From Methanobacteriota archaeon (GTDB lineage Archaea > Thermoplasmatota > E2 > DHVEG-1), in assembly GCA_963769885.1 (NCBI GenBank), contig CAVYNH010000007.1:96001-160000 (forward strand): DNA of 64,000 bases. Direction: 5' to 3'. Shown here in pieces: positions 26,258 to 27,725 of the stretch. Positions within the stretch are counted from its first letter, which is position 1. Every line of letters begins with the position of its first letter. Below the pieces are notes generated by a model that saw nothing but the letters and a program-made list of their open reading frames with translations, made no database searches and was not told where the DNA came from. The position numbers and the translations under genes were made by a program.

Positions 26258-27370
26258 CTAGTAGGGATTCTTTGCCGGGTGCCAGTCGAAGTTAATCCAT
26301 CTTTTCCCATGGATTATCATGGGTCCTGAGCCGTCCCAAGAGTCCCAATAGTTACGAGCCCAGCGTGAGCCTATGGTATCCATGAAATAGGCATCCATGC
26401 CGTTCTTGAAGAAGTTATTTTTTGTGACAGACGCCAGAAAAGATCCAACAAAGAGAATGCCTGTTTGATTGCATTCTGAAATCGAGTTGGCAGTAATGGA
26501 AGTCGACAAAGCTGAAAGCAAATTGATGCCATTCCGACAATGGGAAATATTGTTGCCCGAGATCAAATTAAAACCACCAACCCAAATAGCAATACCATCA
26601 ACAAACTTTGTTATGGTATTCCCAACGATTCTATTTGATGAAAACGCTTGATCTATGCCCTGACTAATATTGAGGCCCCCTGGATGAGTTGCATTAGCGA
26701 TAATATTTCCTTCAATCAGACAATGGCAACCTTGTGTATAGATTCCCTCAAATGCCGGATAGAGAATGGTGTTCCCACGGATGGTCGATAATGTTAGAAA
26801 AGAGTCAATCCCAATTGCCGTCCTGTTTGTATATCCCGGGGTACCGACTGACATGATCGTATTCCCGGAGATGATGGAGTGAAAGGTCAATGCCTGCACG
26901 ATGCCCGTCCTAGTGTTGATGAAGGTATTATTTGAGATGTTGACGTTCGATGATTTCTGAATATGAATGCCAGAATCAAATTCATTGAGGCTGCAGTTCC
27001 TGATCGTGAACCCGGAGACGCGGACCCCGTTCGTGCCATAGATATAGAGGACGTCTGAGCTTCCACCGCCTCCCATCCCGTCGATGACCGTGGTCTCCTT
27101 ATCCTCGCCGATGAGGCGAATCGACTTGTCGATGACGATGTTTTTTTCGTAGTACGGTGATGAGTCATTGTAAACGAAGACGGTGTCCCCCGCGGCAGCG
27201 TCAAGGACCGCGTCTGTGATGTTACTGTAATTCCCAGGCCCAGAGCCTCCAACGTAGAGGATGACTCCCGAAGTCCCGCGCGCTTGTTGCGACGATACCG
27301 GAACTGCCATACTCAAACAGCATAGGACGGCGACAAGGAAACGGACTCTTTTCCCGTTATCTCTTTCCAT
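26258..27370 (-). CDS. secreted right-handed beta-helix (NosD/CASH) protein
   Basis: LYVGGSGPGNYS.I..AV..A..GDTVFVY, I..N.I repeats and C-terminal NYW...NFDWHPA. Confidence 0.85.
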   Translation of the reverse strand: MERDNGKRVRFLVAVLCCLSMAVPVSSQQARGTSGVILYVGGSGPGNYSNITDAVLDAAAGDTVFVYNDSSPYYEKNIVIDKSIRLIGEDKETTVIDGMGGGGSSDVLYIYGTNGVRVSGFTIRNCSLNEFDSGIHIQKSSNVNISNNTFINTRTGIVQALTFHSIISGNTIMSVGTPGYTNRTAIGIDSFLTLSTIRGNTILYPAFEGIYTQGCHCLIEGNIIANATHPGGLNISQGIDQAFSSNRIVGNTITKFVDGIAIWVGGFNLISGNNISHCRNGINLLSALSTSITANSISECNQTGILFVGSFLASVTKNNFFKNGMDAYFMDTIGSRWARNYWDSWDGSGPMIIHGKRWINFDWHPAKNPY

Positions 27371-27455
27371 TTTCAACCCCCGTTAAAGAACAAAGACTTG
27401 ATGAGATATTTAATATTAATGGCAAAGGGGATTAAAAGAACGAGGAAAAGGGGAC

Positions 27456-27553
27456 GCCCGAAGAGAGCGCCACGCGGACACCAAATGCCCACGCGCGCAG
27501 CTCCCACAGAAGGCCAGGCACCGGCGCCAAACGCCGCCGCCCGCCCACCGGGC
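27456..27553 (-). ncRNA. candidate novel structured RNA with two UUUGG-capped hairpins
   Basis: TATAAATA 25 nt upstream, terminal stem GCCCGG/TCGGGC, two GC-rich hairpins with identical TTTGG loops, G-U pairs favouring the minus strand, and T-tract downstream. Confidence 0.55.
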
Positions 27554-27666
27554 AATGATACTATTTGTCACTCCCCCTATTTATAGCTTGTCCCGCCAAC
27601 TCCCACCCCATTAAAAACACCAGGGTACCAGAAACCCTATAACACCACAACAACTACCACCACACT

Positions 27667-27725
27667 GCCTCTATCCAAAGAGAATCGGTGACTATGATGA
27701 TCCGATTTGACGACATAGAGGTACA
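27667..27725 (+). ncRNA. archaeal box H/ACA pseudouridylation guide RNA (candidate)
   Basis: Lower stem GCCTCTAT/ATAGAGGT, pocket CCAAAGAG/TGACGAC, upper stem AATCGG/CCGATT, K-loop U-GA...GA-U, and ACA 15 nt from the pocket top. TATA-like CCTATAA about 25 nt upstream. Confidence 0.72.

Follow-up and report, generated by a model that had tools for sequence, protein, structure and literature searches.

CsrB and RsmZ are small, independently transcribed bacterial RNAs in which one short motif is repeated in hairpin loops, and the partner gene has the motif in its leader too, which makes autoregulation possible. A similar design is found in the RNA described here, a twin-loop RNA from an uncultured archaeon that has the motif UUUGG in two hairpin loops and a one-arm form in front of p70, the gene of a candidate partner. 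However, there is no homology between them: the motif is UUUGG instead of GGA, there are two sites set in a fixed three-way junction, and the system is archaeal, with a candidate protein of the Sm fold instead of the CsrA fold and a binding that is only predicted. To our knowledge, no CsrA is to be expected in archaea, and very few structured non-coding RNAs have been described from uncultured archaea, almost none of them with a candidate protein partner.

In the thrS operator of E. coli, two anticodon-arm mimics bind the dimeric ThrRS. The twin-loop RNA likewise has two hairpins with the same loop, equal to positions 33-37 of tRNA-Gln(UUG), but it is encoded in trans, its loop has 5 nt and a Watson-Crick closing pair, and it shows no consistent link to GlnRS. 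The bacterial cuckoo/CcsR and RsaE/RoxS RNAs resemble it in having two hairpins whose stems vary but whose loop motif is the same, a variable copy number and one-hairpin relatives; their loops, however, are C-rich anti-Shine-Dalgarno seeds of 6-9 nt, whereas the loop here is UUUGG and shows no enrichment at start sites. The 5S rRNA, which is separately transcribed in Thermoplasmata, is comparable in size (~100-120 nt), in having its ends paired in helix I, in its two arms and in its own promoter, but the loops of the twin-loop RNA are unlike 5S loops C and D and the 5S model gives no match. Another comparison is with RNAs that carry an Sm site, such as the U snRNAs and the archaeal SmAP-sRNA complexes: A-UUU-G-G resembles AUUUUUG or AAUUUGUGG, and Sm-fold proteins are encoded in the same genome (two LSM genes plus the p70 domain). 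In its canonical form the Sm site lies single-stranded between helices, with the ring assembled around it (PMC4152361), whereas the motif described here is a closed hairpin loop of 5-7 nt that occurs twice.

The twin-loop RNA gene and its fold

The window analyzed is a stretch of 64,000 nt from an archaeal MAG of 2.09 Mb (7 contigs, 92% complete; G000). An earlier note on this DNA had proposed a novel RNA on its minus strand, and the elements that it listed (TATA box, twin hairpins, closing strand and trailing stretch) are all present there (Table 1). The TATA box is preceded by the purine-rich GGGACAAG, and the closing strand of P1 is followed by CCCCUUUUCC. Judging from the distance to the TATA box, transcription should start at about 27553-27555, and the T-run is likely an archaeal oligo-T terminator, although the congeneric genome (G001, 91% complete) has no T-run at the corresponding spot. 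The span matched by the covariance model is 27449-27556.

Table 1. Features of the twin-loop RNA locus and its two neighbors in the window
Feature	Position	Strand	Basis or remark
Twin-loop small RNA, ~99 nt	27455..27553	-	RNAfold, full-length matches of covariance models R1 and R2, covariation
TATA box TATAAATA	27578..27585	-	24 nt upstream of the first P1 base
Proximal promoter element GTGACAAATAGTA (TGACAAA box)	27559..27571	-	Between TATA box and start site; identical in G001
P1, 5' strand GCCCGG	27548..27553	-	Pairs with 27456-27461
Arm 1, bulged helix with cap G-UUUGG-C	27512..27546	-	RNAfold; helices 2 and 3 covary
Loop 1 UUUGG, within hairpin CGGCG-UUUGG-CGCCG	27527..27531	-	Near-invariant in 43 homologues
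Arm 2, GGGAGC/GCUCUC base, long helix, cap A-UUUGG-U	27463..27505	-	RNAfold; helices 5 and 6 covary
Loop 2 UUUGG, within hairpin GGGCA-UUUGG-UGUCC	27481..27485	-	Near-invariant in 43 homologues
P1, 3' strand UCGGGC	27456..27461	-	RNAfold and covariation
T-run (UUUU)	27446..27449	-	Shortly past P1; T-run after P1 in most homologues
NosD/beta-helix protein gene	26258..27370	-	Downstream of the RNA
Single-hairpin H/ACA-like RNA	27667..27725	+	Divergent neighbor

RNAfold of 27553-27455 on the minus strand gave a three-way junction closed by P1, exactly as drawn in the earlier note, with a free energy of -66.1 kcal/mol (z = -3.9), and none of 200 dinucleotide shuffles folded equally well. The structure of the first covariance model (R1) was set by hand and validated by the later data. 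Covariation was evaluated in an alignment of 43 copies, fitted to the covariance model and ranging in G+C from 0.30 to 0.73. Standard pairs filled 91.5% of the pair cells, against 36-53% when the partners were slid by 1-3 columns, double changes on both sides were found in 35 of the 36 pairs, and the observed covariation values were reached by none of 500 shuffles; a set of 21 sequences gave the same picture. All six pairs of P1 showed compensatory changes, with 95% of cells paired, and in arm 1 so did 11 of 11 pairs in helix 3 and both pairs in helix 2. The stems that had been described as different in sequence under identical loops are indeed so, and they covary among the homologues. RNAalifold recovered P1, arm 1 and the tip of arm 2 from the 43-copy alignment and, since it used the same model-fitted alignment, is only partly independent of the fitting. 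A different RNAalifold fold, obtained from an alignment of G000 and G001 only, was rejected as slippage of a GGC repeat. By comparison of homologues, 27553-27455 of the minus strand is confirmed as the gene of a genuine structured RNA.

Both apical loops have the form A-UUUGG-U and are near-invariant in the 43 copies, loop 1 being G-UUUGG-C in G000 and G001. The three pairs below the closing pair vary by transitions only and are always, from the bottom up, R-Y, R-Y and Y-R; below them there is an unpaired purine or A on the 3' side, and then G-C pairs. The conserved module, used twice, is made up of a 5-bp helix with a fixed purine/pyrimidine orientation whose closing pair is A-U or G-C, the UUUGG loop and the unpaired purine or A. 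In the A+T-rich members a near-identical core of ~17 nt (GAUAUUUGGUAUCUACC) is found in both arms, so the RNA looks like a duplicated module. A loop that is kept while the stems change freely (30-73% G+C) with their orientation held is typical of the site of a sequence- and shape-specific ligand. UUUGG-loop hairpins are not enriched genome-wide in G000 (71, against 37-85 for permuted loops), hence the signal is specific to the twin-loop locus.

A search of Rfam 15 found nothing overlapping 27440-27600 at the gathering score or at an E-value of up to 10, and ten diverse homologues gave no relevant match at E <= 1. Neither ARAGORN nor RF00005 predicted a tRNA at the locus (tRNA-Thr and tRNA-Asn are found elsewhere in the window), and the 5S model RF00001 did not match the twin-loop RNA even at E = 10. 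The genuine 5S rRNA gene of G000 lies at C5:179442-179561 (78.8 bits), and its SRP RNA (RF01857) and RNase P RNA (RF00373) are also located elsewhere in the genome, above their cut-offs; the twin-loop RNA is therefore additional to these RNAs and not a divergent copy of any of them, which agrees with the first reading of the locus as neither tRNA, 5S, SRP nor RNase P RNA. H/ACA features are likewise absent from it (no GA/AG K-turn, no internal pocket of the right size, no ACA after the hairpins), and neither C nor D box (RUGAUGA, CUGA) occurs within 27455-27553. The genes downstream of the two-arm form vary, contrary to what would be expected of a riboswitch or cis-leader, whereas the one-arm form is placed as such a leader before p70. 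No known Rfam family matches, we found no description of such an RNA in the literature, and the twin-loop RNA is a previously undescribed structured RNA family.

Distribution and neighboring genes

BLAST of the locus against 41 relatives found only G001 (85% identity), besides one chance match inside a gene, so covariance models were needed. G001 shares the promoter and the RNA with G000 but differs in the 3' flank and in the gene downstream. Of the 108 family genomes, 21 gave a single full-length match each to R1, which was built from the G000 and G001 sequences; with R2, a model for which the R1 matches served as input, the full-length twin-loop RNA was found in 64 of the 108, in 27 of 40 genera and once per genome. 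Additional copies whose loops have drifted, to UUUGA in both or to UUUAG and UUAGG, are present in a few genomes. There was no credible copy in nine other families of the class (84 genomes), where the one weak match (G181) was rejected as GC-rich, coding-like DNA with no promoter; matches in the sister family f2 were too weak to call.

Pattern searches were also carried out in larger collections. Among the 80 stretches listed for a degenerate twin-loop pattern in GTDB species genomes, all 15 credible matches came from Thermoplasmatota MAGs, and a match labelled Acidimicrobiia was rejected as a tandem repeat of the GGTACC type. Homologous loci include those of Thermoplasmatales archaeon SM1-50, which we take to be a member of Marine Benthic Group D, and Thermoplasmata archaeon M11B2D. 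The exact twin-loop pattern gave 109 stretches in JGI metagenome contigs, and none of the 80 that were listed and tested matched R1. Judging from these searches, the RNA is restricted to a single family of uncultured sediment Thermoplasmatota. A Clostridia MAG, CALXEV01, contains at least eight copies of a twin-ATTTGGT repeat with a fixed span of ~41 nt (L224, L235, L236, L243, L275, L288 and L291); R2 scored none of them, and this is probably an unrelated dispersed repeat.

No protein gene is a universal neighbor of the twin-loop RNA, and no conserved target gene was found beside it. In g1 and g18 the RNA adjoins the H/ACA-like RNA and a divergent operon of DUF7285/DUF7284 pilin-like proteins, and in five other genera it lies on the opposite strand between p94, a conserved 94-codon gene, and an Alba gene. 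In G000, p94 and Alba are adjacent and the RNA is not between them. The p94 product has no Pfam match and no profile similarity to p70, and its structure model was unusable (pLDDT 45). G000 has five Alba paralogues, at C7:420984-421675 (-), C7:88348-88626, C1:7052-7327, C1:12124-12399 and C6:298476-298751; one of them directly follows the conserved p94 gene, and the two copies on contig C1 have identical tblastn scores (64.5% identity, 123 bits) and opposite orientation.

Downstream of the two-arm RNA, depending on the clade, are found a C25 peptidase, an MFS transporter, the NosD-like gene or a convergent p94. The NosD-like gene of G000 has its own TATA-like box and Shine-Dalgarno sequence and is absent from this position in G001, where an MFS transporter follows the RNA directly, in what looks like a recent insertion or deletion. 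Since the downstream gene differs between the two congeners and has its own promoter and Shine-Dalgarno sequence, the two-arm RNA appears to be trans-acting.

The divergent H/ACA-like RNA has a lower stem formed by GCCUCUAU and AUAGAGGU, pocket strands CCAAAGAGA and UUGACGAC, a K-loop (UGA...GA) and an ACA, and it is kept beside the twin-loop RNA in g1 and g18 (21 distinct loci). Its best genomic complement, at G000 C4:233745-233760 (GUCGUC-CG-CUCUUUGGAUAG), has no U at the target position.

The one-arm form, p70 and the shared promoter

Some R2 matches correspond to a one-arm form of ~64 nt, with P1, a single GAUA-UUUGG-UAUC arm, the same promoter and a terminal U-run. Seven of the ten copies found lie 15-35 nt upstream of p70, a gene of ~70 codons (in G072, G076, G053, G077, G044 and twice in G078), and this adjacency spans four genera. 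Pfam has no family for p70, which gave only weak matches to RimP-C/PRC barrels. Its AlphaFold model (pLDDT 85) has an N-terminal helix followed by five strands, and the best Foldseek matches in the PDB were AF-Sm2, LSm, SmAP and the Hfq of M. jannaschii, with TM scores of 0.6-0.68 and weak E-values of 0.01-0.08. Judging from this predicted structure, p70 is a candidate small Sm-fold protein, with these weak E-values for its top structural matches; its sequence reads as lacking the canonical RG motif of Sm2. In many genera p70 is a separate gene. In G000 it occurs only twice, each time as the N-terminal ~65 residues of an archaellin-like protein encoded on contig C5, and two canonical LSM genes are present besides these domains.

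The p70 domain was found in 97 of the 108 family genomes. By family, it is present in 62 of 67 genomes in f1, in all four of the sister family f2 and in none of the 25 and 32 genomes of two other families; by sequence search it is thus restricted, among the families searched, to the same order as the twin-loop RNA. Within the family, we found no association between the two (both present in 56 genomes, RNA only in 8, p70 only in 41, neither in 3). The eight genomes that bear the RNA and have no detectable p70, among them G001 (91% complete) and G058 (94% complete), indicate that p70 is not an obligate or sole partner.

The earlier note's claim that the RNA has its own promoter is borne out by a TATA box at a matching distance, 21-24 nt before P1, in 42 of the 43 loci (all but L145), and most of the loci have an oligo-T run after P1. 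Between the TATA box and the start site, most homologues have the box (A)TGACAAAGAGTA, and in most genera a TTTGACATTTTGACA-like or TTGTCGTTTTGTCA-like element is located 5-6 nt upstream of the TATA box. The RNA and the stand-alone p70 genes share one architecture, in which TTTGACATTTTGACA is followed after 5-6 nt by TTTAWATA and, 6 nt further on, by TGACAAA. The unit of one-arm RNA and p70 in G072 has a TGACAGA variant of this promoter, and other stand-alone p70 genes have the same promoter architecture and no hairpin. Archaeal repressors usually bind between the TATA box and the start site, and because the TGACAAA box occupies this place, the promoter seems to be regulated and the box GTGACAAATAGTA is probably the operator of a transcription factor.

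The hairpin-less p70 leaders (L194 and L197-L201, from G006, G084, G071, G081, G074 and G073) are ~150 nt long and contain a conserved upstream ORF of 8 codons (MLITGF-type, with its stop) between conserved flanks. This ORF may be a leader-peptide control element.

Of five other genomes searched for the TATA-N-TGACAAA arrangement, four have it at 2-5 promoters each, where the control with the reversed pattern gave 0-1, and the fifth, G101, had no match. The complete genome G072 has five promoters with the motif, one of which drives the two-arm RNA and another a p70 paralogue. In the 2.09 Mb of G000 the 11-mer GTGACAAATAG has two occurrences, one at the twin-loop RNA and the other on contig C1 before a 75-codon ORF, at the same distance of 6 nt from the TATA box. 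This second locus (C1:61151-61460, minus strand, outside the window) comprises a TTTATAT box, GTGACAAATAG, a 7-bp hairpin at the predicted 5' end, a GGAGGTG Shine-Dalgarno sequence and the ORF, which has no significant Pfam match (PF15226, at E = 0.02, was weak and below cut-off) and is probably co-regulated with the twin-loop RNA. A TGACA-box promoter also precedes the genes of a 259-residue membrane protein with a LDVLRGFAIIFMIFLH motif and of a 308-residue secreted protein (L162, L163 and L171, in G072 and G008). The distribution of the box suggests a small regulon that includes envelope proteins.

Possible ligands of the UUUGG loops

We infer that the ligand of the loops is a protein, not an RNA, on the basis of the invariant loops, the covarying stems, the duplicated module, the half-size copy before p70 and the shared, apparently regulated promoter. 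In ring-shaped (L)Sm proteins each subunit binds about one base around the pore, so the ends of a bound 7-nt stretch should come close together, which is also what a hairpin loop demands. The U-rich site recognized by Sm rings has 7 nt, 5'-AUUUUUG-3' (PMC4152361), and the resemblance of A-UUUG-G to this site makes an Sm ring the leading candidate. A-UUU-G-G also fits the core of the RAU3-6GR consensus, with a preceding base that is usually a pyrimidine and a site that is a closed hairpin loop. The closing pair covaries from A-U to G-C, which implies a tight pentaloop in the free RNA and counts against the Sm-site reading. So do the adjacency of the one-arm form to p70 in no more than four genera, the varied neighbors of the two-arm RNA and the weak Foldseek E-values. 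On balance, we tentatively prefer an RNA that docks protein, with Sm-type rings as its likely ligand, and give this reading slightly less than even chances. That p70 specifically is the docking partner is a possibility of which we are rather doubtful, and the canonical SmAPs or an unrelated protein are possible partners as well.

In the reading that we favor, the RNA would be transcribed from its own promoter, apparently under regulation, as a stable molecule of ~100 nt ending at the oligo-T run. Each UUUGG module would serve as a docking site for a protein, and the RNA would act as a bivalent ribonucleoprotein scaffold or as a titrator (sponge) of ring-forming Sm-fold proteins, that is, p70 and/or the canonical SmAPs. 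The one-arm leader would allow p70 to autoregulate. Of the functions offered in the earlier note, a protein-titrating sRNA stays plausible, Sm-fold proteins being the candidate partners (one-arm p70 leader, shared promoter, p70 fold), with the identity of the partner only inferred.

An extension of this docking model, which we regard as improbable, is that the RNA and p70 form a feedback circuit for the assembly of surface filaments. Each archaellin exported and cleaved would free one p70 domain into the cytoplasm, p70 rings would bind the UUUGG loops, both those of the twin-loop RNA and that in the one-arm p70 leader, and the cell would in this way count assembled subunits and tune the small TGACA-box regulon. 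Such a circuit would be an archaeal counterpart, made of unrelated parts, of the FliW-CsrA-flagellin partner switch of bacteria.

The loops could also recognize RNA. A base-pairing regulatory sRNA that uses its twin loops as seeds for CCAAA sites in mRNAs would suit two identical, accessible loops and an independent promoter and terminator, and loops with a G changed to A (UUUGA, UUUAG) would retain their pairing with some of the YYRRR targets. However, a pentaloop with a covarying closing pair leaves a seed of at most 5 nt, no conserved target gene was found nearby, and at 2238 predicted starts, counting the region upstream and just inside, CCAAA shows no enrichment over its permutations (74, against 39-112), a count that has low power if the targets are few; we consider this explanation unlikely. 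The pairing of UUUGG with the pocket of the neighboring H/ACA RNA, suggested in the earlier note, is not supported: this neighbor was detected only in g1 and g18 and the twin-loop RNA is present in 27 genera at other loci, the complementarity is only 5 nt, and the bases 5' of UUUGG (GGCG, GGCA) mismatch the UCUC required by the guide strand.

It is less probable still that the RNA is a twin mimic of the anticodon arm of tRNA-Gln(UUG), which binds or decoys a synthetase, a modification enzyme or an anticodon nuclease. In G000 this tRNA has the anticodon loop C-UUUGG-A, with positions 33-37 identical to both loops of the RNA; the geometry of an anticodon loop is consistent with a 5-nt turn closed by a 32-38 pair, and G000 has an unusual GlnRS of the bacterial type. 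Yet any pentaloop of the form U-NNN-purine fits positions 33-37 of some tRNA, so that we estimate a chance resemblance at ~5-10%; the stem, with 5 bp including the closing pair, leaves either stem or loop too short for an anticodon arm; and GlnRS was not found above the cut-off in G043, G022 and G052, all at least 90% complete and with the RNA present, which means that the link to GlnRS is not general.

A binder of tRNA 3' ends, in which UGG(U) of each loop pairs with (A)CCA-3' and tethers two tRNAs in the manner of T-box leaders or the L15 loop of RNase P, seems very improbable. UGGU is complementary to ACCA, but neither context nor distribution points to tRNA metabolism, the conserved UUU is left unexplained, and the paralogue loops UUUGA, UUUAG and UUAGG break the GG:CC pairs; no test favored the pairing with CCA ends raised in the earlier note, and these same loops are weakly against a strict UGG:CCA match. 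A cis-acting 5' leader or attenuator of the downstream gene is hardly credible for the two-arm RNA, as the genes that follow it differ between clades and are sometimes convergent and the NosD-like gene of G000, absent in G001, has its own TATA-like box and Shine-Dalgarno sequence, even if the one-arm form does hold a leader position before p70 and a short U-run could attenuate transcription.

Whatever binds its loops, the twin-loop RNA combines an unusually strong covariation with a clear recognition element that can be mutated (the two UUUGG loops) and a natural variant of half its size. It also has a concrete link to a lineage-specific candidate Sm-fold protein that in G000 is fused to archaellins. 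If the link to p70 and the Sm fold is true, this would be a new archaeal ribonucleoprotein and possibly a new coupling between filament assembly and gene regulation; if the link fails, the family would still be ready for inclusion in RNA databases and would provide a marker RNA for this sediment lineage.
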